Positions 17,235 through 29,275 are shown, numbered from the stretch's first letter. The stretch is 59,876 nt of DNA from an uncultured Polyangiales bacterium (GCA_964456305.1 CAYWAT010000001.1:23001-82876); one strand, 5' to 3'. Made by a program: numbers and translations. The notes: a model not told the origin generated them from the letters alone.

Positions 17235-20200
17235 ATGGTGTTGCCTATGGAGAGAGATGCGTTCGCGCAAAAGCCTCACGATGTTCAACAGAAAGAGGCT
17301 ATGCAAGGCCGCTTAGGTTTTGCACAAGGAGTCGAAGAAGACCTCGAAAATTCTTCGAGCATAGCTGTTATCGGCATTGGTTGTCGTTATCCCGGTGCCA
17401 GTAATCCCAAGCAACTTTGGGAAAACATTCTTGCTCGGCGTCAGCAGTTTCGACAAATGCCTGATTGTCGTCTGCCTCTATCTGAGTATCACCATCCTGA
17501 CCCTAAACATCCTGAGAAAATCTATAGCACGCGCGCTGCCGTGATGGATGGTTTTCACTTTGATTGGGCGACACGACGCATCCCTAAATCAACCTATGAG
17601 CACGCCGATATCGCTCACTGGCTTGCTCTCGATGTCGCCTTAGATACGCTCGACGATAGCGGTATACAGCAAGCGCTTCTTCCACGCGATAAAACAGCGG
17701 TGTTTCTGGGAAATACCCTGACAGGCGAGCAGTTTCGTTCCATTTCAATGCGCCAGCGATGGCCCTTTGTCGAGAAGGCTGTGCGCACTGGATTTCGGAG
17801 CCAAGGATTAACGGGCTCTTCCTTCGATGCTGCCATTGAAGCGACTGCCGAAGCCTTTTTATCGGTTTTCCCCGAAACAGACGAAGATACCTTAGCAGGT
17901 CTGCTTTCTAACACCATTGCCGGGCGTATTTGCAACTACCTCGATCTCCAAGGTGGAGGCTATGTGGTGGATGGTGCTTGCGCCTCGTCGCTGCTTGCCG
18001 TGATTAATGCCTGCGAGCGACTTTCGTTGGGTGAAGTGGACATCGCGTTTGCGGGCGGTGTGGATATCAGTCTCGATACCTTTGAGTTGATCGGCTTTGC
18101 CAAAGCTGGCGCCTTAACGCCTGATATCATGCGTGTTTACGATGAGCGCGCCAATGGCTTCATCCCCGGTGAAGGCTGTGGTTTTGTGTTGCTCAAGCGC
18201 TTTCAAGATGCCTTGCGTGATAACGATTACGTATACGCATTGCTGCGGGGTTGGGGCGTTTCCTCTGATGGCAAGGGCGGTATTACCGCGCCTGCGAGTT
18301 ATGGTCAGTCTCTAGCCCTTGAGCGTGCGTATATCAAAGCGGGTTATTCGCCGCAGTCGCTCAACTTTATCGAAGGTCATGGTACCGGGACACGTGTGGG
18401 CGACAAAGCGGAGCTCAAAGGCATTCAACTTGTTCTCGATCGTTTTAATGGAAAGCAAAATCTAGATTCTAATCAAGAACAAGAACGCCATGTTGGGGTA
18501 ACCTCCTTCAAGTCTTTGGTCGGACACACCAAGGCAGCGGCGGGCATCGGTGGCCTTATTAAAGCGATTTCTGCGGTCAATCGACGTGTGGTTCCACCCA
18601 CTGCAGGCTGTGCTTCTCCCAGTCCCGTTTTTAGTAACGAAACTCCTTCTCTTTATCCTGTATTAGAAGGGGTTGTTCATCCTCCTGAAGCGACGCTTCG
18701 TGCAGGGGTTTCTGCCATGGGTTTTGGCGGTATCAATGCTCATATTACCCTGCAGTCTGCTCGTTCGCCGGCAGCGCGTTTGTGTCCTGATATCGACGAG
18801 CAATGTCTTCTTGCCTCGGCGCAAGACAGTGAAGTCTTTGTGCTGGGTGCTGCAACATGGCCTCTGCTTATCGATGCATTGGGTGCTCTTCGCAGTCGTG
18901 TGGAAGGCTTGAGCTTGGCTGAGCTGATTGATCTCAGTGCGCATCTTGTTCGCACCTATGAGCCTTCTGTGTGTACTGTGGCTCTCGTAAGTGATAGTCC
19001 AGCAGCTCTGGTTGATGCCATCGATGCGCTCTGTCAGCAGTTACTGGATGCGCCGCCTTGTTGTGAGCAGCATCGTCCCTTTGCCTTTTGGCATTCTCAC
19101 GATCGCAAGCAGTGGGCTTGTGAGCGACCTGATGTGCACTCTGCTGCGCGTATTGCCTTTGTGTTTCCAGGCCAAGGAAGCCAAGCGCTTAACTGCGCTC
19201 GCATTTTGGTGAAGCGTTATGTCTGGGCAAAAAGACTTGTTGAGCAAGCGGATGCTTGGATCGCTGAAGTGGGCGGTTCTCCTATTGCTTCTTGCCTTTA
19301 TCCACCAGCTCTGGGTGAGTTAGGCGATTCACAATCGCAGGAGCATGCGGCGCGTTTACAGGGTCCTGCCTATGCGCAAAACGCCATCGTGCTGAGCGCG
19401 CTTTTATGGACGCGTTATCTGCGTTCTGAGTTGGGCGTGGAGCCTGTTATCACTGCTGGACATAGCTTAGGCGAGCTGGTGGCTTTGTATGTTGCGGGGG
19501 CCTTGGATGAAAAAGCACTGGTTCAGCTCACTGCGATTCGCAGTCAGTACATGGCCGCCTGTGGTGAGGGGGCGATGGCTGGTTTTGGTTGTGATGCTGA
19601 GACCGCAGAGTCTCTGCTTGCCTATAGCGATGCCTATGCTGTGGTAGCCAATCGCAATAGTCCCCGGCAAACTGTGCTTTCCGGACAGTTCGCGGCTATC
19701 GATCAATTGCTCGAAGTTGCCAAAGAGAAGGGCATCGCGGCGCGTAGGCTTGCAGTTACAGGCGGCTTTCATTCGCATTTGGTGGAGTCCGCTGGCAAAG
19801 CCTTAGCAGCAGATGCGCGCGTCGCGGCAGAAGCAAAACTCTCGTTGCCTCTGGCCAGCAGTATCGCGACAGTAGGCAAACTGAAGGGCGATATCGATGT
19901 GCGGGCGCATGTGGGCAAGCAGGTCGCGGCTCCCGTCGATTTTATTGCCGCCACTGAAGTGCTTGCCGAAGACAGCGATGTGATCCTCGAATTGGGGCCC
20001 GGCCAGGTCTTGTCGCGACTCATCGGCGATACTCTTGCCGGTCGTGAACAGTCTCCCTTGTGCATGCCTATCGAACCCACCGCGGGCCAAGGGTGGGCGC
20101 ATGCTCAGCTTCTCGCAGCCCTTTCTATATGCGGTCATGCCTCTGCGTTGGATAAAAGCTTTGGCGCGCGTTTGCATCGACCTTTTGTCGATGTGGCTGA

Positions 20201-23200
20201 ACGACGTTTCATTGAAAGTCCTTGTGAACGTCCCATGACGGTGACCCAGGCTCACTTGCAGGCGAACGATGCAACGGCTGGCTCTGCGCAGACTTCCATA
20301 AGCGGTATCTTTGACGACGCCTGGGCCGAGTTGGATCCTCAGACGCGTCAGGCTTATCAAGACGAGCGCGCCACTCTCATCGATCAACTGCAAGGCGTTT
20401 TAGCACGCGATGTACAGCAGTTTATCGGGCAATATCGACGAGATACGCAGGGTGGCATGAGCGCAGCTAAGACATCGCCCCTTTCCTTGGCCTCGTCTTC
20501 GTCTACAGAGGAGCAGATAGACTCGGTATCGGTGGCGGTGCAATCCGCGGATCTCGCGGCCATGCTCTTGCAGCTCGTCGCTGAAAAGACCGGCTTCCCG
20601 CTGGAGTCCCTGTCGATGCAGCAGCGATTGCTAGATGACTTGCGCCTCGATTCGATCAAAGCCGCTGAGTTTATCGTTGAAGCAGCGACTCAGGCATCCG
20701 TGGATACCACCGCTCTCAATCCCATGAATTTTGCCAACGCATCCTTGGACGAAATTCGCGGTGCCCTGCTGGATCTTGCGCCTGAGCATGCGGCCACCGA
20801 TGCTGCCACTCAAGAGACGACAGAGTCATCGATGACCTTTCCGGCAACGCCGTGGACGCGCAACTTTGATCCCATCTGGGAGCCTGAACCTTTAGAGGCT
20901 GATTCCAGTCTCTCCCAGTGGGCTGATACCTCGGTGCTTTTATGTGCCGATGCCTCGTCGACGATGGCTGATGCCCTTGCTGAGGCCCTGGGCGCAGAGG
21001 GAGTGCCCGTCCGTAGATATCGCTGGGGAGATTCGCCAGAGCCTCTTAGCGCAGAGCGTTTCAGTGATGTGATCGCCTTCGTGCCCGCTGATCGCGAGGC
21101 GGAGGGTGAAGTCATGAAGGCGATCGAAGCCTGGGTTGTTCTGTTATGTGAGCTTGCCCAGCTTGCGGGTTCCAAACAGACAACGCCGCTGCGATTGCTC
21201 TGGGTTCAGCAAAGCTCGGCCTGGGCGCCGGAGGGGCGTGTGTGGTCTGCCGATGCCTTTATCTGCAGCCTGGCCTTGGAGCGTCCGCATCTATGTGCGC
21301 GATCGCTGTTAGTACATACCCGTCTGTCTTCTGCTGACTTGCTACGTTGTCTGAGTGCAGAGCGCGCGGCGATGTCTTTGCCCCATGCCTCTGTGATGGA
21401 GCGAGTGTGGTTTGCCCCCGATGAAATGCGTCACGTGTTGCGTTTGTCTTTGAGTCAGCCTGCCTCTTACAAGCCGCGTCGCAATTCTCTCAAGGCGGGT
21501 GATGTCGCTCTGGTCACGGGTGGGGCCAAAGGGATCACCGCCGAATGCGCGTTGGGCTTGGGCCAAGCTCTGGGTCTCAAGATGGTGCTCGTGGGTTCAT
21601 CTCCCGAAGAGAGCGTGACCCAGCAACTTAAACGCTTTGAAGATGCTAATGTCGATGCTCTGTATCTGCAGTGCGATCTCGCAGATCCCGACGCTGTCAA
21701 AGAGCTGGTGGCATCGGTGCGAGAACGCGTGGGTCACATTGATGCCCTCATTCACGGTGCGGGTCTTAACCGTCCTGGTGTTCTGATGGCGCCTAAAGCT
21801 CAGGCGGCTTTAGCTGAGATGGCGCCTAAACTTATGGGTGGGAGCACGCTACTTGCTGCTCTGGATGACGATCCGCCCCAACTGGTGGCGATGTTTAGTT
21901 CGGTCATCGGGGTGATCGGCATGATGGGCAATGCCTGGTATGCTTTTGCGAACGAGTGCTTGGACCTGCAGCTGGGTCAGTTTTTAGCGCGTCATCCCGA
22001 GGTCGAGGGGGTTAGCCTAGGCTATTCCGTTTGGGAAGATGTGGGCATGGGCGTCAATCTGGGGTCACTGGAGACGCTGAAAAAGCTGGGTATTGACACC
22101 GTGCCCGTTAAGGAAGGGGTGCAGCGTTTCCTGCGCTTGCTCAGCCATGACTCCCAGCATCGGCAAGTTGTGATTGGGGGGCGTATGGGAGCGGTTGAGA
22201 CCGGAAAACCCGTCGCGCTGCCTCCGCCTCAACGCAAGCATCAGTTTCTTGAGCGTGTATTGTATGTGCATCCGCAGCTCGAAGCCTTGGTCGAAAGCAC
22301 CCTCGATTTCGAGCGCGATGCCTTTCTGCACGACCATGTTTTTCAGGGAAACTGCTTGATGCCAGCCGTGGTTGTGATGGAGGCGATGGCCCAAACGGTG
22401 GCTTACCTTTTGGGGCGCGATTCGATCACCCCTCTCGAAGTACAAGACCTGGTGTTTATGCAGCCCGTGACTGTGCCTGAAAACGGGCGTCGGACCATTC
22501 GCATTCATGCCATGGTTAAGGAGGTTGAACCGGGGGACCTTCATAAAGAACGCTCGACGAAGGTGGCACTGAACCTGCGCTCAGAAGTGGATCGCTTTGC
22601 CCGTGATTGGGTAAGCGCAACTTTTTCACTTAACGAAAGCAGCACGCCTCTGTTGTCTGACAGCTTTAGCAGCAACGTGTCGTCTCTGGAAAAGAAGGCT
22701 TGGAGTCCTCTCAATCGAGGGCTTTACGGCAGTCTGCTTTTTCATGGCAAGTCTTTTGAGCGCATCGAAAAGGTTTACGAATTAAGCGAACGCAATTGCC
22801 TGTGTCGCATTGCTCAGCGTGCTGATCAGCCCTTTGTGTTGGGCGATCTCTATGCTCGTGATGCCATTCTGCAAAGTATGCTTTTTGTAACCACGCCTCA
22901 GCTTGCCTTGCCCAAAAAGATCAGTGCCTGGCGTATCCATCGTAAGGTCCCTGTGCATCAGAATTCAACTCTCGCGCGGTCTTTAAAAAGCCATGCAAGC
23001 GCCAAAGAGATCGGCATCGAATCCTGTGTGAAAGACGAGCATGGAGCGCTACTGGAAGAGCTGCAGTGGACAGCCGAATCAGCTTCTTCTGTGGTTATTG
23101 ATAAGATGCTGCCAACGCCAGATCAGCTTGAAAGTGGTTGGAGTTATTACGGTCGTGAAATTCATCAGTCCATCGAATCTGTATGCCGAGAAAACAACTT

Positions 23201-23864
23201 TGAATTGCCAGAGTTTTTTGCTCGTTTAGCGCCTGGCATTTCACGTCAGTCCAAGCGTGAAAGACGAGATTCACATCGTGCCTATCTTGAGCGCATTGTG
23301 GGATCAATGGTTGAACTCAAGTGGACGCGGCAAGGTAGACCTACCATTGCTCATCACAGCAATTATAAGTCCATCTCCCTGACGCACGATGAAGACCTTT
23401 GTGTGTACATGCTGGATGCGGAGGCAGAGCATATGGGCTGTGATATTGTGGCTCTGCAAGGCAGAACCGAGAGCGACTGGCAGGCCCTTTTGCCCTATGA
23501 ATCGCATGCCTCTTTGCGCCGCCTTCTCGATGATGGCGCGGGCGCTGATAACGCCGGATCGGTCGTGTGGTCATTGCTCGAAACATTAACCAAATGTGCT
23601 TATGATTCTGCATCGCTTGTTAAAGGCATGAGTCTGGTGAAGCGAGGTTTGAACTGGTGGATTCACGACATTAATGTCGACAAAATTAATCGACGGTTTT
23701 GCTCTGTGAATATTTCGATCAATCGTCGATCCTATGTGCTTTCTTGGTCTGTTCCCCCTCGTGATATGCCAAGACAATCATTGATACGTGCACGGTCGTC
23801 ACGAGCGGAAAACAAGACCGAAGACATGTCTGCAAGTCCATTTCGGCTTGTCGCCAAAAAGTGA
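17235..23864 (+). CDS. iterative type I polyketide synthase with enediyne-PKS (PKSE) domain order KS-AT-ACP-KR-DH-PPTase
   Basis: KS: IAVIGIGCRYPG, active-site Cys in DGACASSL (codon 17979-17981), and the EGHGTGT and GHTKAAAG His motifs. AT: GHSLGE (Ser codon 19464-19466). ACP: DDLRLDSIKAAEF (Ser codon 20652-20654). KR: VTGGAKGIT (21513-21539). DH: HDHVFQGNCLMP (22329-22364). C-terminal Sfp-type PPTase-like motifs: ISLTHDED (23373-) and GCDIV (23436-23450). The N-terminal stretch (QFRQMPDCRLPLSEYHHPDPKHPEKIYSTRAAVMDGFHFD..HWLALD) matches my memory of SgcE/CalE8-type PKSE proteins. There is no TE, ER or MT domain. The start is uncertain (ATG 17235 or 17247); the ORF-track start at 17091 is unlikely. 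Confidence 0.9.
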   Translation: MVLPMERDAFAQKPHDVQQKEAMQGRLGFAQGVEEDLENSSSIAVIGIGCRYPGASNPKQLWENILARRQQFRQMPDCRLPLSEYHHPDPKHPEKIYSTRAAVMDGFHFDWATRRIPKSTYEHADIAHWLALDVALDTLDDSGIQQALLPRDKTAVFLGNTLTGEQFRSISMRQRWPFVEKAVRTGFRSQGLTGSSFDAAIEATAEAFLSVFPETDEDTLAGLLSNTIAGRICNYLDLQGGGYVVDGACASSLLAVINACERLSLGEVDIAFAGGVDISLDTFELIGFAKAGALTPDIMRVYDERANGFIPGEGCGFVLLKRFQDALRDNDYVYALLRGWGVSSDGKGGITAPASYGQSLALERAYIKAGYSPQSLNFIEGHGTGTRVGDKAELKGIQLVLDRFNGKQNLDSNQEQERHVGVTSFKSLVGHTKAAAGIGGLIKAISAVNRRVVPPTAGCASPSPVFSNETPSLYPVLEGVVHPPEATLRAGVSAMGFGGINAHITLQSARSPAARLCPDIDEQCLLASAQDSEVFVLGAATWPLLIDALGALRSRVEGLSLAELIDLSAHLVRTYEPSVCTVALVSDSPAALVDAIDALCQQLLDAPPCCEQHRPFAFWHSHDRKQWACERPDVHSAARIAFVFPGQGSQALNCARILVKRYVWAKRLVEQADAWIAEVGGSPIASCLYPPALGELGDSQSQEHAARLQGPAYAQNAIVLSALLWTRYLRSELGVEPVITAGHSLGELVALYVAGALDEKALVQLTAIRSQYMAACGEGAMAGFGCDAETAESLLAYSDAYAVVANRNSPRQTVLSGQFAAIDQLLEVAKEKGIAARRLAVTGGFHSHLVESAGKALAADARVAAEAKLSLPLASSIATVGKLKGDIDVRAHVGKQVAAPVDFIAATEVLAEDSDVILELGPGQVLSRLIGDTLAGREQSPLCMPIEPTAGQGWAHAQLLAALSICGHASALDKSFGARLHRPFVDVAERRFIESPCERPMTVTQAHLQANDATAGSAQTSISGIFDDAWAELDPQTRQAYQDERATLIDQLQGVLARDVQQFIGQYRRDTQGGMSAAKTSPLSLASSSSTEEQIDSVSVAVQSADLAAMLLQLVAEKTGFPLESLSMQQRLLDDLRLDSIKAAEFIVEAATQASVDTTALNPMNFANASLDEIRGALLDLAPEHAATDAATQETTESSMTFPATPWTRNFDPIWEPEPLEADSSLSQWADTSVLLCADASSTMADALAEALGAEGVPVRRYRWGDSPEPLSAERFSDVIAFVPADREAEGEVMKAIEAWVVLLCELAQLAGSKQTTPLRLLWVQQSSAWAPEGRVWSADAFICSLALERPHLCARSLLVHTRLSSADLLRCLSAERAAMSLPHASVMERVWFAPDEMRHVLRLSLSQPASYKPRRNSLKAGDVALVTGGAKGITAECALGLGQALGLKMVLVGSSPEESVTQQLKRFEDANVDALYLQCDLADPDAVKELVASVRERVGHIDALIHGAGLNRPGVLMAPKAQAALAEMAPKLMGGSTLLAALDDDPPQLVAMFSSVIGVIGMMGNAWYAFANECLDLQLGQFLARHPEVEGVSLGYSVWEDVGMGVNLGSLETLKKLGIDTVPVKEGVQRFLRLLSHDSQHRQVVIGGRMGAVETGKPVALPPPQRKHQFLERVLYVHPQLEALVESTLDFERDAFLHDHVFQGNCLMPAVVVMEAMAQTVAYLLGRDSITPLEVQDLVFMQPVTVPENGRRTIRIHAMVKEVEPGDLHKERSTKVALNLRSEVDRFARDWVSATFSLNESSTPLLSDSFSSNVSSLEKKAWSPLNRGLYGSLLFHGKSFERIEKVYELSERNCLCRIAQRADQPFVLGDLYARDAILQSMLFVTTPQLALPKKISAWRIHRKVPVHQNSTLARSLKSHASAKEIGIESCVKDEHGALLEELQWTAESASSVVIDKMLPTPDQLESGWSYYGREIHQSIESVCRENNFELPEFFARLAPGISRQSKRERRDSHRAYLERIVGSMVELKWTRQGRPTIAHHSNYKSISLTHDEDLCVYMLDAEAEHMGCDIVALQGRTESDWQALLPYESHASLRRLLDDGAGADNAGSVVWSLLETLTKCAYDSASLVKGMSLVKRGLNWWIHDINVDKINRRFCSVNISINRRSYVLSWSVPPRDMPRQSLIRARSSRAENKTEDMSASPFRLVAKK

Positions 23865-23870
23865 GGTTTT

Positions 23871-25349
23871 ATGGAATCAACAAATCCCGATCAGCGTGTC
23901 CCGGTACGGCGTTACTCAGAACCCTTTCGTTCGCGTCGCATCCAGTCTCCTGCCTTTGCGAAGGGGCTGGCTGTTTCTTTTGAGTACCAGAACAAACCCA
24001 TTAAAGGCGTTGGGCAGGACTTGTCGGCTGGTGGTGTGCGGGCAACCTTTCCCACCCATGAACTAAGCAAGGGGGAGACGTTGCGTGTGGGCGAGTCACT
24101 CGATGGTGTGCGGGTGAGTTTCTTCGATCGCGCTGTATTTGAAGGCGATGCCTGTGTGCGTCACGTCAATCACGATCAGCAGGAGTGTTCCATCGGACTG
24201 GAGTTGAATGGGATGAACGTCGCGATTCACTCTATTCAAAGCGACTCGGTGCGTTTGGATCTGCGTTATCGACTCGATCTTTTGCTGCGCGATATGGCAG
24301 AACTAACAGCGCAGGTGGAGAGCGATTTTGAGCAATGGCTCCTTGATAGCAAAGCTGCGCTGAGCAAACTCCGTGACTTTCTCGATCAGGAAGAAAAATC
24401 ATGGGCGCATCTGGATTGGATCACGCGCCATCAGAATGTGAAGATCATTCTTGACGAAGCCGGCAAGAAACTCGTGCCCCTGTTTAACGATTTTCGTGAC
24501 GCGCTTAATTTCCGCGTCGCCAAATTTTCTGAGGCAGAGCACAAAAAATGGCGCCCCATCTTTAGGCAGCATCTTGGCGAATTATTTATGGCCTGTCCTT
24601 TTACGCATCGGGCATTTCATAAACCCATGGGCTACGCGGGTGATTACGAGCTGATGAGCATGCTTTACCGTGCTGAGCCGGAGGGCGATTCCCTCTTTGC
24701 TAAGGTACTGAATATGCACTCCAAGGACGAGCCGGCGGGACGTGCCACCATTAATCGTCTTGAGTACTTGGGTGGTATTTTAAGCGAGCTTGCCACCTCA
24801 ACTGAGGCGCATCCCTTAGAAGTTGCAAGCATCGGTTGTGGAGCTGCACGCGAGCTCGTGCATTTATTGACGCGTAAGCCTGAATTGGGTCCCAAACTGA
24901 AAATCGCTCTGGTGGATCAAGATTCTCGCGCCCTCGATTTGTGTGAGCGCACCCTAACGCCACTGAGTCGCAAAACAGGCGCCCGTTTTAGTTTTATCGG
25001 CGATCCTATCCAAAGCTTGATTCAGGAGAAGAATCTTGGCGATTGCTTAGGAAAAAGGGATCTAATTTATTCCGCAGGCCTGTATGATTACCTAGAGGAC
25101 GATGTTTTCGTGGCGCTCACTCGAGTGCTCTACGATGCACTAAAGCCTGGAGCGAAGCTTGTGATCGGAAATATGGCCAACCATAACCCCACCAAAGAAT
25201 GGATGGCGTATGCCATGGACTGGTATCTGATTCATCGTTCTCCCGATGAGCTCATGGAACTGGGAACGCGCGTTACAAGCGATAGCAGCAAGGTGTTCGT
25301 AGATTCAGAGCCAGAGGGGGTGAACTTGTTTGTGCACCTGCGTCGATGA
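23871..25349 (+). CDS. PilZ domain fused to class I SAM-dependent methyltransferase (possibly PhcB-like)
   Basis: The N-terminal PilZ signatures are QRVPVRR (RxxxR) and, downstream, DLSAGGVRA (D-x-S-x-x-G), ending in a beta-barrel-like CSIGLEL. The C-terminal methyltransferase has motif I LEVASIGCGAARE, the post-I acidic site IALVDQD, motif II DLIYSAGLYDYL and motif III LKPGAKLVIGN. It starts 6 nt after the PKS stop. Confidence 0.8.
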   Translation: MESTNPDQRVPVRRYSEPFRSRRIQSPAFAKGLAVSFEYQNKPIKGVGQDLSAGGVRATFPTHELSKGETLRVGESLDGVRVSFFDRAVFEGDACVRHVNHDQQECSIGLELNGMNVAIHSIQSDSVRLDLRYRLDLLLRDMAELTAQVESDFEQWLLDSKAALSKLRDFLDQEEKSWAHLDWITRHQNVKIILDEAGKKLVPLFNDFRDALNFRVAKFSEAEHKKWRPIFRQHLGELFMACPFTHRAFHKPMGYAGDYELMSMLYRAEPEGDSLFAKVLNMHSKDEPAGRATINRLEYLGGILSELATSTEAHPLEVASIGCGAARELVHLLTRKPELGPKLKIALVDQDSRALDLCERTLTPLSRKTGARFSFIGDPIQSLIQEKNLGDCLGKRDLIYSAGLYDYLEDDVFVALTRVLYDALKPGAKLVIGNMANHNPTKEWMAYAMDWYLIHRSPDELMELGTRVTSDSSKVFVDSEPEGVNLFVHLRR

Positions 25350-27979
25350 ACACCAAGGATCAGGATACCGCCGAGCAGTCGCTATACCAAAGCTACACCT
25401 CAACCTGGGGTATTAGCGCTGCTCGCATTTCCTGCATCCTGACGGGCACGCTCATCCTTATGGGATGGGTGTTGGAGTGGTCTGCGCACCCCGATAAGAT
25501 ATGGGATTTTCTGGTGGTGCGCATCGCCGCAGCCTCGACCGATTTTGCCTTGTTGGGGCTGACTTTTTTGCCGGGTGCCAAGCGTTATTCAAAAGCGCTC
25601 TTTCTCGCGCCGATTTTTGTCGTGGTGATTGCGGTGCAGGTGATGATTCATCGTTTGGGGGGCTATGTTTCGCCCTATTACGCTGGGTTGAATCTTTGCA
25701 TTCTGGGCTTTGCCATCACCGTTACGCTGCCGCTGAAAGAGACCATCATTGTTTGCTGTTCGGTGGTGCTTTGTTGGCTGCTTGGCGGGTTGTTTAACCT
25801 CGATGAGTTTTCCTTTGGCGCCTTTTTTAATAACGTATTCTTTTTGAGTGGCACTGCCGCAATCGCCATTGGCTCGACTTTGATTCGCAATCGGGTCGCG
25901 GAAAAAGAATTCCAGTCTTATTACGAAAACCGGAAATTAACCGAGCTCGACAAGCATAAAGACCACTTCTTCGCCAATGCCTCTCACGAGTTACGAACAC
26001 CGCTGGTATCGTTATCGTCAACGGTACAGATGATGCTTGAAGGCGGTGTGGCTGATCCCACCCAGCATAAGTTACTCGTATCTAGCCAAGAGGCGCTCGA
26101 GGATATGCTGGAAAACGTCAATGATATTTTGCTCAAAACGCGGGCAAGAAAAGGTACCCTCGATGCGCGTTGGGCGCAGATTCAAGTAGCTTCTTTTATC
26201 GATCGCTCCCTGTCGGTCTTTCGACCTTTGGTTAAAAAGCGAAACATCGAGCTCGTCTTTCACAGTGGGGTAGAAGACGAGCTAAGTGCTTATGTAGACC
26301 GGCGTCATCTCAAAAAGATCGTCAATAATCTTTTGGGTAATGCCATCAAGTTTACTGAGCGCGGCAAGATTGAAGTGACCTTGTCTGCGGATGCCAAAGT
26401 TTGGCGCCTTAGCGTGAAGGATACCGGCAAAGGCATTCCGGAAAGAGACCTGCCGATGATTTTCGATCCTTTTGTGCAGGCCAGCAATAATGAGCAACGC
26501 GAAGTACAAGGCACAGGTCTGGGCTTGTCGCTTGTCAAAGACTTGGTCGAACTGCATCAAGGGCGCATCGACGTAAGCAGTGTGTTGGGAGAGGGTAGCT
26601 GTTTTACGGTGACGTTGCCTCTAGGTGATGCACACGTCGACTTCGCCAAGCTCGATGCCTCCGATGTGGCTGACGAACAAGACGAGCGGGTGAATCTCAA
26701 GCTACGCGCGAAAGAGGACGTCGATTTGAGCCCCTTTGCTAAGCATGAGCTGGGTTTGCCTAATTTGCTCATCGTCGAAGACAATCCCCAGGTTCTACAG
26801 GTTCTTGCCTATGCATTGCTGGGCAAATACAACCTCAACTTTGCTTGGGATGGGCAAGAGGGGCTTGAGCGTATGCGTGAGCTCAACCCCGACCTGGTCA
26901 TCAGCGATATTATGATGCCGCGCAAAAACGGCTATCAGCTTGCCGAGGAGATGAAGCAGGACCCACAACTTCGTAAGATTCCGCTGATTTTATTGACCTC
27001 TAAGGTAGAAAAAGACGCGCGCATTTTGGGCTTTAAAAAAGGCGCTGATGAATATCTGTCAAAGCCCTTTAATCATCAAGAAGTGCACACACGCATAGAA
27101 GGCCTGTTAGCGCGCAAGAAAATCGAAGCCGAAGCGATTCATGCCGAAAAGCTAGTGTCGATTGGTCAGATGGCGGCGGGAATTGCCCATGAAATTAACA
27201 ATCCCATTAGCTGCATTAACAGTGCTGCCCCGATGATGACAAAAATTATCGACAAAATGGTGGCTAAAGGACTGGAAAGTAACAAAGAAGTAGATTTGAT
27301 GCGTGAGTGTCTCGAGGATATCTCTGAGAGTGGGCGTCGTGTTTATGAGCTAACCTCGGCCTTGAAAGGGCATATTCACCCTGGTTCGGACCGTTTCGAG
27401 ACACAGGATATTCACCCTGACTTAGACCGCACGCTGCGTATTCTTAAGTCGGCTAATAACGTTCCGAATATCGAATTCCAAACAGACTATCAGCTCTCAA
27501 GCCATGTTTCTTGTCAGGTGGGTCATCTCAATCAAGTCTGGATGAACCTGATGCAAAATGCGGTTGATGCGATGGAAAACGCACGTGCTAAGCGCGATCA
27601 AGAAAGTCATGAAGAACGCAACTCTCGCATTGTTGTTCGTACCTATGAAGATGCCAATTTTGCCTTTGTTTGTATCGAAGATAACGGTCCTGGAATCCCC
27701 CTGCACTTACAGGAGAGGATTTTTGATCTGTTTTTCACCACCAAGCGTTTGGGCAAAGGTACAGGTATGGGACTTTACATGTGCAAGCGCATTATTGAGG
27801 AGCATGGTGGGTCTTTGTCCCTCGAGAGTGATGCAAGCACGGGTACGCGTTTTATTGCGCAGCTACCCTTGAATGTAGCCGATGACCGGTACCAGAGGAG
27901 CGATGTGGTTTTGAATCAGACAACGGTGGATAACCTGAAATCTGTCCAATATCCCCATGTTGTGTCATCCTACGACTAG
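25346..27979 (+). CDS. polytopic membrane sensor with two complete kinase cores separated by a receiver (TM6-HisKA-HATPase-REC-HisKA-HATPase)
   Basis: About six closely spaced hydrophobic helices have no sizeable periplasmic loop. Kinase 1 has H-box SHELRTPL, N-box LLGNAIKF, and the DTGKGI and GTGLGLSLV G-boxes. The receiver has LLIVEDNPQ..LVISDIMMPRKNG..SKP. Kinase 2 has H-box AAGIAHEINNPIS, N-box LMQNAVDA, and the DNGPGI and GTGMGLYMC G-boxes. The start overlaps the upstream stop (ATGA). Confidence 0.85.
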   Translation: MNTKDQDTAEQSLYQSYTSTWGISAARISCILTGTLILMGWVLEWSAHPDKIWDFLVVRIAAASTDFALLGLTFLPGAKRYSKALFLAPIFVVVIAVQVMIHRLGGYVSPYYAGLNLCILGFAITVTLPLKETIIVCCSVVLCWLLGGLFNLDEFSFGAFFNNVFFLSGTAAIAIGSTLIRNRVAEKEFQSYYENRKLTELDKHKDHFFANASHELRTPLVSLSSTVQMMLEGGVADPTQHKLLVSSQEALEDMLENVNDILLKTRARKGTLDARWAQIQVASFIDRSLSVFRPLVKKRNIELVFHSGVEDELSAYVDRRHLKKIVNNLLGNAIKFTERGKIEVTLSADAKVWRLSVKDTGKGIPERDLPMIFDPFVQASNNEQREVQGTGLGLSLVKDLVELHQGRIDVSSVLGEGSCFTVTLPLGDAHVDFAKLDASDVADEQDERVNLKLRAKEDVDLSPFAKHELGLPNLLIVEDNPQVLQVLAYALLGKYNLNFAWDGQEGLERMRELNPDLVISDIMMPRKNGYQLAEEMKQDPQLRKIPLILLTSKVEKDARILGFKKGADEYLSKPFNHQEVHTRIEGLLARKKIEAEAIHAEKLVSIGQMAAGIAHEINNPISCINSAAPMMTKIIDKMVAKGLESNKEVDLMRECLEDISESGRRVYELTSALKGHIHPGSDRFETQDIHPDLDRTLRILKSANNVPNIEFQTDYQLSSHVSCQVGHLNQVWMNLMQNAVDAMENARAKRDQESHEERNSRIVVRTYEDANFAFVCIEDNGPGIPLHLQERIFDLFFTTKRLGKGTGMGLYMCKRIIEEHGGSLSLESDASTGTRFIAQLPLNVADDRYQRSDVVLNQTTVDNLKSVQYPHVVSSYD

Positions 27980-29275
27980 GTGGAATACGAAGCCATGCCC
28001 ACACAAAACGACCCCGTTCAATCGCAGTTAAGACCGACGTCGAAGCAAATTCCTACCTGGCGTGAGTATCTCATTCTGCTGGTCGACGATGACTTGCAGG
28101 TCTTACGCCAGTTGCGCCGTGTGTTGGAAATCGAGGGGGAGTTTAATGTCATCACAGCGAATAGCGCTGAGGAGGGCCTTGATCTCATCAAAAACCAACC
28201 CATTAAGCTCGTGATTTCTGACCAAAAAATGGAGCCAGGTATGGGTGGCGTGGAGTTTCTGGCGAAGGTCAAAGAGATCAATCCGGACATTCTTACCGCT
28301 ATTTTATCAGCCTATTCAGAACCCGAACTTATTCTTAAGTCGGTTAATGATTCAGGCGCGTTCCAATACATGGTCAAGCCATGGAATGATGACGAGCTCA
28401 TCATGAAGGTGGACCAGTGCCTGCAGTATTACCAAGCCCAGTCGCAGATACGCAAAATGGCAAAAGCCAATCAAGAGCTGGTCGCGCGCTTGGCCACGCA
28501 AGAGAAGTTTTCCCTGATGGGTGGCTTAAGTACCACTCTTTACACGCGTTTTTTTCATGCCCTGCGTTATGCCTACAAGTGCTCACAAAAAAGGTTGAGC
28601 AAGCTCAAGTCAGGATCCGATGAAGAGACGCGTGAGCAGTTTGCTCGTGAGAGCCTCTGTGGCATGAGCATGGCGTTGTCGCAGTTTCGTCTAATGGCTG
28701 AGGTATACAACCAAAAGCCTTACTTTGAGCAAGCCGACCTCAATTGTGTGATCAGCGACTGCATTGAAGAGGGCGTCGAAAAAGCCAAGTTGCAGGCTAA
28801 TATCGAGATCAAGGTGGAGCAGGATATCAGCGAGCTACCCAATCTTTGGATCGACCGCGAGCTTTTTGTCTGTGCCTTGCGCAGTGTGTTTGAGAATGCT
28901 GTGCGCTTTAATAAGCCCGAAAATCCGCGTATTGTATCGATCACAGCGAAGTGCATTAAGCAGCCGCGTTGGCTGGTTCAGTTGCAGATTCGAGACCACG
29001 GCAAGGGTGTATCTTTGCCGATGGCGGAAAAAGTCTTCGAGCCTTTGCATGGCGCTTCGTCGCCGCCTTCTTTTGAGCATCTGCAGCCCAATGCGTTGGG
29101 GGCCTATAACTTTACGCCCTACAATCACGTGGGGCTTGGGCTTACAGTCGCGCGCTGGTGCTTGGCGCGACACGAGGGAACCCTAGAGCTCCTCAACCCA
29201 GGCGAAGCAGGTGCAATCTTTCAAATCGAGCTACCCATGGTGCTCTCAAAAGTTGCCGATCAGGTAGGCGTATAA
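27980..29275 (+). CDS. receiver domain fused to a kinase-like HATPase domain with degenerate H-box (PhcR-like architecture)
   Basis: REC: LILLVDDDLQV..LVISDQKMEPGMGG..VKPW. The C-terminal half has an N-box-like FENAVRFN, DHGKGV and GLGLTVA. The dimerisation/His region (GGLSTTLYTRFFHALRYAYK) lacks a canonical H-E-x-x-x-P-L box. The GTG start immediately follows the upstream stop; ATG 27995 is an alternative. Confidence 0.75.
   Translation: MEYEAMPTQNDPVQSQLRPTSKQIPTWREYLILLVDDDLQVLRQLRRVLEIEGEFNVITANSAEEGLDLIKNQPIKLVISDQKMEPGMGGVEFLAKVKEINPDILTAILSAYSEPELILKSVNDSGAFQYMVKPWNDDELIMKVDQCLQYYQAQSQIRKMAKANQELVARLATQEKFSLMGGLSTTLYTRFFHALRYAYKCSQKRLSKLKSGSDEETREQFARESLCGMSMALSQFRLMAEVYNQKPYFEQADLNCVISDCIEEGVEKAKLQANIEIKVEQDISELPNLWIDRELFVCALRSVFENAVRFNKPENPRIVSITAKCIKQPRWLVQLQIRDHGKGVSLPMAEKVFEPLHGASSPPSFEHLQPNALGAYNFTPYNHVGLGLTVARWCLARHEGTLELLNPGEAGAIFQIELPMVLSKVADQVGV

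Follow-up and report, generated by a model that had tools for sequence, protein, structure and literature searches.

In a stretch of 59,876 nucleotides from an uncultured Polyangiales bacterium (GCA_964456305.1 CAYWAT010000001.1:23001-82876; hereinafter the window, at its full length), four plus-strand genes between positions 17235 and 29275 code for an iterative type I polyketide synthase (PKS) of the enediyne type, a methyltransferase of the PhcB family with an N-terminal PilZ-fold domain, a hybrid sensor kinase, and a PhcR-like protein combining a receiver with a kinase-like domain. Based on homology and gene order, we posit that these constitute a Phc-type module for making and sensing a lipid methyl ester, which additionally possesses its own acyl-chain factory; we place the probability of this reading at roughly 0.55. 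In the published model of the Phc system, PhcB makes the methyl esters of 3-hydroxymyristic or 3-hydroxypalmitic acid (3-OH MAME or PAME), PhcS senses them, and the genes lie in a phcBSRQ operon (PMC7694676).

The second open reading frame (ORF2; 23871..25349, 492 aa) comprises a PilZ-fold N-domain (aa ~25-115), a helical middle domain (aa ~119-300) carrying the motif KPxGYxGDYE, and a class I S-adenosylmethionine (SAM) methyltransferase domain (aa ~310-492). In its AlphaFold model (mean confidence, pLDDT, 90.6), residues 33-113 form a barrel of six strands and residues 119-310 a long, helical domain, with a Rossmann methyltransferase as the remaining unit. For comparison we used orthologs of the Phc proteins from Cupriavidus and Paraburkholderia, with the orthology of the two PhcB proteins being judged by operon structure, the presence of R22, and their 68% mutual identity. 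Four proteins are encoded on the Cupriavidus contig (L089), namely a 463-aa methyltransferase, a 443-aa MASE8-HisKA-HATPase kinase, a 381-aa REC-HisKA-HATPase protein and a 332-aa REC protein; this corresponds to the phcBSRQ layout as published (PMC7694676). The locus on a Paraburkholderia graminis plasmid codes for a 468-aa methyltransferase, a 445-aa kinase and two receivers; this methyltransferase is 68% identical to the Cupriavidus proteins and has R22, a residue reported as conserved among the PhcB proteins of Ralstonia, Cupriavidus and Paraburkholderia (PMC6989110).

In BLASTP searches ORF2 aligns with the Paraburkholderia PhcB ortholog at 29% identity (E 8e-33, aa 235-487) and with that of Cupriavidus at 29% identity (E 8e-30), the alignments spanning 262-272 residues, while a profile of the helical middle domain reaches both orthologs at E 1e-19. 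This similarity is much stronger than that to generic methyltransferase models: the Pfam match to Methyltransf_12 (25 bits, E 3e-5) lies under the curated cut-off, and the sequence in the PDB that the family profile matches best, a CheR methyltransferase, is a marginal hit (E 6.6e-4). Thus, the methyltransferase is indeed nearer to PhcB than to generic class I methyltransferases, which the earlier note on this DNA had put forward as a check of its proposal that the quartet resembles the Ralstonia phcB-phcS-phcR system. No NCBIfam model matches ORF2, and the PDB sequence search found no PhcB-like solved structure; small-molecule O- and C-methyltransferases head the list in a Foldseek search with the whole model. 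With ORF2 as query, a database search recovered 141 relatives, mostly from Polyangiales metagenome-assembled genomes (MAGs), and many of its homologs bear the orthology term for phcB as their JGI name, 'extracellular factor (EF) 3-hydroxypalmitic acid methyl ester biosynthesis protein'.

The family shows further architectural variety. In two members (P0110 and P0113, 634-637 aa) the methyltransferase is fused to an acyl hydrolase of the patatin-like type (PF01734), an arrangement consistent with the PhcB family using an acyl carboxylate as substrate. Many others (P0376, P0381, P0389, P0398 and additional proteins of 590-640 aa) have an extra N-terminal extension of ~115 residues, and in these the profile match is split over two stretches. 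A few have much longer N-terminal extensions, such as P0367 (985 aa).

The linkage of the PKS to the methyltransferase is conserved in the relatives of the window. In 8/8 lineages of the clade of the window that could be inspected upstream, the homologous PKS lies directly before the methyltransferase, with gaps ranging from -29 to +51 nt; these lineages are the window itself, L081, L082, L084, L085 and L086, together with L170 and L171, which were found from the PKS side. Across them the methyltransferases are 36-64% identical and the PKSs 27-46%, and the retention of the order in all eight at such methyltransferase identities excludes chance adjacency. A kinase follows the methyltransferase in 6/6 of the clade loci that have the kinase, with an ATGA overlap in 4/6, while the receiver-kinase protein varies in position, being downstream in L081 and 5′ of the PKS in L082. 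With homology to PhcB and linkage to the PKS both conserved, none of the outcomes at the sequence level that the earlier note had named as speaking against its proposal was obtained.

The four genes are closely packed. The start of the PKS (17235..23864, 2209 aa) was taken as the ATG at 17235 (the ORF listing gives 17091/17235) and agrees with the public protein record (P0241, 2209 aa). Its stop codon (TGA, 23862-23864) is separated by a 6-nt spacer (ggtttt) from the ATG of the methyltransferase at 23871, which in turn overlaps the kinase gene (ORF3; 25346..27979, 877 aa) by an ATGA at 25346-25349. The kinase ends in a TAG at 27977-27979, with the GTG of the fourth gene (ORF4; 27980..29275) immediately after it (0-nt gap); an alternative in-frame ATG at 27995 would leave a gap of 15 nt. 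The ORF listing thus reproduces the four plus-strand frames and the three junctions as first described. A consensus scan found no convincing promoter or terminator inside the four-gene unit.

Pfam profiles identify ketosynthase (KS), acyltransferase (AT), PP-binding, ketoreductase (KR) and dehydratase (DH) domains in the PKS, and inspection shows the catalytic motifs to be intact (DGAC249ASS, HGTGT382, GHSLG742, GFHSH, LDS1139, TGGAKGIT and HVFQGNCLMP1701), in agreement with its initial recognition as an iterative PKS; the GFHSH motif of the AT domain is of the malonyl type. Its last ~200 residues contain motifs of Sfp-type phosphopantetheinyl transferases (PPTases; ISLTHDE, GCDIV and WSLLETLTK by inspection) and give a weak Pfam ACPS match (E 0.18). 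With the PP-binding domain as the acyl carrier protein (ACP), the order KS-AT-ACP-KR-DH-PPTase on a single polypeptide is that of the enediyne-type synthases (PKSE), and many relatives at 37-51% identity carry the JGI name 'enediyne polyketide synthase'. The best NCBIfam match is PfaA, far under its cut-off, and no solved enediyne PKS fragment is among the best 60 PDB sequence matches. We rejected the reading of the region as an enediyne natural-product locus because the cassette genes are absent: Pfam searches found neither the hot-dog thioesterase E10 nor E3/E4/E5, whether among the window neighbors or at the PKS-methyltransferase loci of relatives. The chain that PKSE enzymes build on their ACP is a conjugated C16 polyene with a 3-hydroxy group; chemically, it is a polyunsaturated analog of 3-hydroxypalmitoyl, the presumed substrate unit of PhcB. 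Methylation would also prevent the decarboxylation that otherwise yields a heptaene.

Relatives of this PKS also occur in other contexts. Two large PKSE-like proteins (P0283, 3214 aa; P0297, 3102 aa) have a PilZ domain fused directly before the KS domain and a flavin amine-oxidase domain at the C-terminus, with P0283 additionally bearing a 4HBT thioesterase. A 42%-identical PKS in a Polyangiales MAG (L172:5111-15375) lacks a methyltransferase; before it comes a MerR/B12-binding (CarH-like) regulator, and after it an HK-REC-SpoIIE protein. On two Enterobacter ludwigii plasmids (NZ_CP134637.1 and NZ_CP134634.1; H34/H35) a stretch annotated as type I polyketide synthase matches a PhcB-family protein with 26% identity over aa 150-446 of P0114, i.e., its middle and methyltransferase region. 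Judged by this match, it is possibly another association of a PKS with a PhcB-like methyltransferase, in the form of a fusion.

Beyond the clade of the window, the methyltransferase family is very large, with 2,840 clusters (50% identity, E <= 1e-30) and at least 589 loci in species-representative genomes. The neighborhoods surveyed were those of the 80 genomic loci closest to the query out of these at least 589, and a metagenome scan with the PKS-clade profile supplied 80 further family loci, none of them members of the PKS clade. A trio of methyltransferase, kinase and receiver occurs in Myxococcota, Verrucomicrobiota, Bdellovibrionota and Burkholderiales, and is common in the first three. 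In most of the Myxococcota and Verrucomicrobiota loci among the 80, the order is methyltransferase, sensor kinase, receiver-kinase protein, the sensor kinases being either of a long hybrid form or of a short PhcS-like form. In a neighbor-joining tree the PhcB proteins of Burkholderiales come out within the Verrucomicrobiota branch, while ORF2 belongs to a separate clade whose sister group is the remaining Myxococcota. Hence, as far as sequence relationships go, the Burkholderiales PhcBSR system is one branch of a very large multi-phylum family. The parallel drawn to Ralstonia in the earlier note therefore stands with respect to gene homology and order, but it is not a rare one. Occurrence of the PKS is confined to a single small clade of myxobacteria: it is seen at 0/160 other family loci (80 genome and 80 metagenome), 104/160 of them with 3 kb or more of sequence upstream. 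A further variant is seen at Bdellovibrio-type loci (for example L062:11082-12575, L038:10817-12301 and L049:1725-3182), where the methyltransferase is followed by a protein of ~490 aa with transmembrane (TM) segments only; it matches only the MASE8-like TM domain of ORF3, and domain queries found no kinase core in it.

ORF3 is more elaborate than PhcS. It starts with a six-TM MASE8-like sensor (aa 25-175), followed by a HisKA/HATPase core 1 (with H214), a receiver (aa 475-585), and a core 2 (aa ~590-845) of the HisKA-like/HATPase type with an AHEINNP H-box, the domain set being assigned with Pfam. The six hydrophobic segments are connected by short loops and match the TM segments of PhcS in position. 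The TM domain alone retrieves that of Cupriavidus PhcS with E 1e-6 (1e-41 after one profile round), and the search converges on 80 proteins adjoining PhcB-family methyltransferases; core 2 aligns with the PhcS kinase core at 30% identity (E 5e-26). Pfam MASE8 goes undetected in ORF3 itself; it is found in both PhcS proteins and, at a sub-cut-off 19 bits, in the ortholog from L082, which is 51% identical to ORF3. Relative to PhcS, ORF3 thus has an extra core 1 and receiver inserted between a PhcS-like sensor and a PhcS-like core. Of the earlier description of this gene product, the six tightly packed helices hold, but what was taken to be a single kinase is in reality an 877-aa hybrid with two cores and an internal receiver.

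ORF4 contains a receiver (aa 32-144) and a kinase-like DHp/HATPase domain with an insertion before the G2 box (Pfam REC and HATPase_c), as had been anticipated from its motifs. Its receiver is 28% identical to that of Cupriavidus PhcR (E 5e-13). Transmitter cores can be aligned with its C-terminal domain along the whole length, but the similarity to PhcR specifically is not significant; an iterative search with this domain drifted to generic kinase cores, and thus cannot show its specific orthology to PhcR. In the H-box alignment, members of the PKS clade show LYTRF, LHQRF or LYDQF as against HELNTP in PhcR and HELRNP in the non-PKS relatives. The description of this H-box as degenerate was correct, since ORF4 has LYTRF where its relatives have HELxxP, and the phospho-acceptor histidine is missing.

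The PilZ domain of ORF2 falls short of formal detection, with a Pfam match of 18-19 bits against a cut-off of 22.5. The structural evidence is clearer: modeled alone with AlphaFold2 (pLDDT 85.7), the N-domain retrieves in Foldseek searches of the PDB a top 28 consisting entirely of c-di-GMP-binding PilZ domains (TM-score on the query 0.53-0.62), including VCA0042, YcgR, PP4397, BcsA, MotI, MrkH and Alg44. The fold matches of the N-domain also include the PilZ protein MapZ bound to CheR1 (PDB 5xly, 5y4r). Accordingly, the proposed combination of a PilZ domain with a class I methyltransferase is upheld at the level of fold. The DxSxxG motif is kept as D50-L-S52-A-G-G55, with S52 nearly invariant and G55 invariant throughout the clade. 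The N-domain profile converges on 42 Myxococcota-type proteins and never reaches the Verrucomicrobiota, Bdellovibrio or Burkholderiales (PhcB) proteins; hence, a PilZ domain recognizable in sequence is a feature of the myxobacterial branch. The fusions in P0283 and P0297 indicate that the PilZ link to this PKS family recurs without the methyltransferase. Given the PilZ-fused related PKSs of other phyla and, by analogy, the MapZ-CheR1 precedent, control of ORF2 by c-di-GMP is plausible, both the binding of c-di-GMP and the gating of synthesis being putative.

Bringing these observations together, we propose the following mechanism. The PKSE-type synthase would prime its own ACP through the C-terminal PPTase-like domain and build a linear acyl chain from malonyl units, which is probably polyunsaturated and/or 3-hydroxylated. 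The carboxyl end of this chain would then be converted to a methyl ester by the PhcB-family methyltransferase, and the PilZ-fold domain of the latter may couple synthesis to c-di-GMP. The lipophilic ester would enter membranes, where the six-TM MASE8-type domain of the hybrid kinase would sense it. Phosphoryl groups passing via core 1 and the internal receiver might modulate core 2, which would act on the receiver of ORF4; the output would be the His-less kinase-like domain of ORF4, probably acting by protein-protein contact as proposed for PhcR. In this scheme we infer the substrate link from the PKS to the methyltransferase, the structure and diffusibility of the product, the operation of quorum sensing, and the direction of phosphotransfer. 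Compared with the Phc-like module originally envisaged, the homology of the components, their order and the PKS linkage stand, whereas the kinase proves to be a hybrid, ORF4 lacks its histidine, and just one of PilZ's two canonical c-di-GMP motifs is present. More tentatively, and with clearly less than even confidence, we suggest that PhcBSR-type signaling is a multi-phylum system of which the myxobacterial branch recruited a PKSE for a polyunsaturated 3-hydroxy or enoyl methyl-ester autoinducer whose synthesis is gated by PilZ and c-di-GMP.

Several observations weigh against the make-and-sense module. Identity between ORF2 and PhcB is just 29% and lies within the C-terminal three quarters of the protein, and the Cupriavidus and Paraburkholderia orthologs stood in for the Ralstonia proteins throughout. 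In the PilZ domain, R20-S-R22-R23 occupies the place of the canonical RxxxR; in the sister clade of Myxococcota, RxxxR is present as part of RRLRARR, while the PKS clade has RSRR. ORF4 has lost a phospho-acceptor histidine that PhcR keeps in the alignment, and beside the operon in the window there is neither a PhcA-like LysR regulator nor a PhcQ-like stand-alone receiver. No thioesterase was detected with Pfam in any of the PKS-methyltransferase loci, which thus offer no evident source of a free carboxylate. In L171 and in the P0012 contig the PKS and methyltransferase have no adjacent kinase; therefore, product synthesis is separable from the sensor, at least in gene position. Finally, the CarH-like neighbor of the PKS in L172 hints that this PKS family can make pigments (light-regulated polyenes) rather than signals.

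Those last two points bear on the most serious competing explanation, under which the product is a polyene methyl ester that stays bound to the cell, for instance as a pigment, a membrane lipid or an antioxidant, with the MASE8 kinase monitoring the lipid level or membrane state in the same cell. This would imply feedback or homeostasis instead of quorum sensing. PKSE-type synthases are known to produce conjugated polyenes, related PKSs bear flavin amine-oxidase/desaturase-like domains, one relative adjoins the MerR/B12-binding regulator, and kinase-less PKS-methyltransferase pairs exist. However, the methyltransferase is tied to a kinase and a receiver-kinase protein in most of the surveyed loci of several phyla in which there is no PKS, and in the one studied branch its product is a secreted autoinducer (PMC7694676). 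We accordingly regard a cell-bound lipid as improbable, though it remains the leading competitor to the module proposed above.

A different view of the methyltransferase would make it a CheR-like enzyme that modifies the kinase or another protein in adaptation, with the PKS as a conserved neighbor of separate role. The CheR structure as best PDB match of the family profile, a weak Pfam CheR match in the Paraburkholderia PhcB ortholog, and the appearance of MapZ bound to CheR1 among the fold matches could be taken this way, but these matches are marginal and reflect the common class I fold, and the whole model is closest to small-molecule methyltransferases in Foldseek. Moreover, PhcB is accepted as a 3-OH fatty-acid methyl ester synthase (PMC7694676), and the tight PKS-methyltransferase coupling in 8/8 lineages, along with the patatin fusions, suggests an acyl substrate; protein methylation is accordingly quite unlikely. 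As the genes are linked by synteny and homology only, one might also argue that all four are adjacent by operon shuffling or hitch-hiking without forming a functional unit. This we consider the remotest of the explanations, given that the arrangement is kept even though the PKSs are only 27-46% identical, and with overlaps of 4 nt and no gap exceeding 51 nt. The make-and-sense module thus remains our favored interpretation.

As for precedents in the literature, the earlier note was unaware of any described system with this combination, and we found no such description in the searchable literature either. In the open literature we found no paper tying phcB to PilZ, PKS, Myxococcota or Verrucomicrobiota beyond incidental mentions, and co-mentions of phcB and MASE8 were likewise incidental. 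Nor did we find an open-access paper discussing the PhcB/PhcS/PhcR-like trios of Myxococcota, Verrucomicrobiota and Bdellovibrionota. The homology to phcB is itself implicit in public annotation, since databases already label these methyltransferases with the phcB term. Accordingly, what appear to be undescribed are the conserved association of a Phc-like module with an enediyne-type PKS, the hybrid kinase with its His-less output protein, and the PilZ-bearing synthase. If our proposal is true, uncultured predatory or social myxobacteria would possess a bacterial signal of a chemically new class, namely a methyl ester derived from a PKS, and c-di-GMP would be wired into autoinducer synthesis, an arrangement we have not found described. 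It would also offer a direct route to the signal, with the two genes for its synthesis being heterologously expressible. The survey of the trio gives greater breadth to a system known almost exclusively from work on a plant pathogen, and supplies many natural variants with which to work out the way MASE8 sensors read lipid esters and the role of the PhcR-type output.

Two further groups of genes precede the operon in the window. Just 5′ of the PKS lie three small plus-strand ORFs (window:15293-16984; 187, 124 and 240 aa), none of which could be given a family, with the 240-aa one showing a weak lamin-tail-domain match; we considered them as parts of the system and left them out because they have no counterpart in the related PKS-methyltransferase loci. 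Further upstream, an exopolysaccharide-like locus with genes on both strands (window:898-15126) encodes a GT2 synthase, an ATP-grasp protein, a receiver-PIG-L deacetylase, an HNOBA hybrid kinase with Hpt, a sigma-54 response regulator, a phosphohexomutase, a TPR protein and a BcsB-like protein. This locus does not adjoin the operon in relatives.

Among known systems, the closest comparison is with the phcBSRQ operon of Ralstonia and Cupriavidus. The two share three homologous components (the third by its receiver) in the same order of methyltransferase, sensor kinase and receiver-kinase protein; a helical domain specific to the family, with KPxGYxGDYE, ahead of a class I methyltransferase; a six-TM MASE8-type sensor without a periplasmic domain; and a third protein with a receiver preceding a kinase-like domain. 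Unlike phcBSRQ, the operon of the window belongs to a myxococcotal rather than a Burkholderiales host and its proteins show just 23-30% identity to their counterparts. It has a dedicated, translationally coupled PKSE-type PKS upstream, a methyltransferase with a PilZ N-domain that is detectable in sequence and whose profile does not extend to PhcB, a HisKA-HATPase-REC block inserted between the sensor and the PhcS-like core, and a receiver-kinase protein that has lost the H-box histidine, with no phcQ or phcA nearby. The PKS in turn resembles the enediyne synthases SgcE, CalE8 and DynE8 in being a single KS-AT-ACP-KR-DH-PPTase protein with a malonyl-type AT domain and in having relatives that carry the enediyne PKS orthology term. 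It differs from these systems in that neither the window nor the related loci contain the hot-dog thioesterase or other cassette genes, and in being 37-51% identical to its labeled relatives. As to the PilZ domain, the window protein differs from the MapZ-CheR1 complex of Pseudomonas aeruginosa (PDB 5xly, 5y4r) in that the domain is fused in cis, the methyltransferase is of the PhcB family rather than CheR, and the RxxxR motif is non-canonical. Nevertheless, both cases physically pair a module of the PilZ fold with a class I SAM methyltransferase, and by analogy MapZ-CheR1 offers a precedent for a PilZ domain controlling a methyltransferase.

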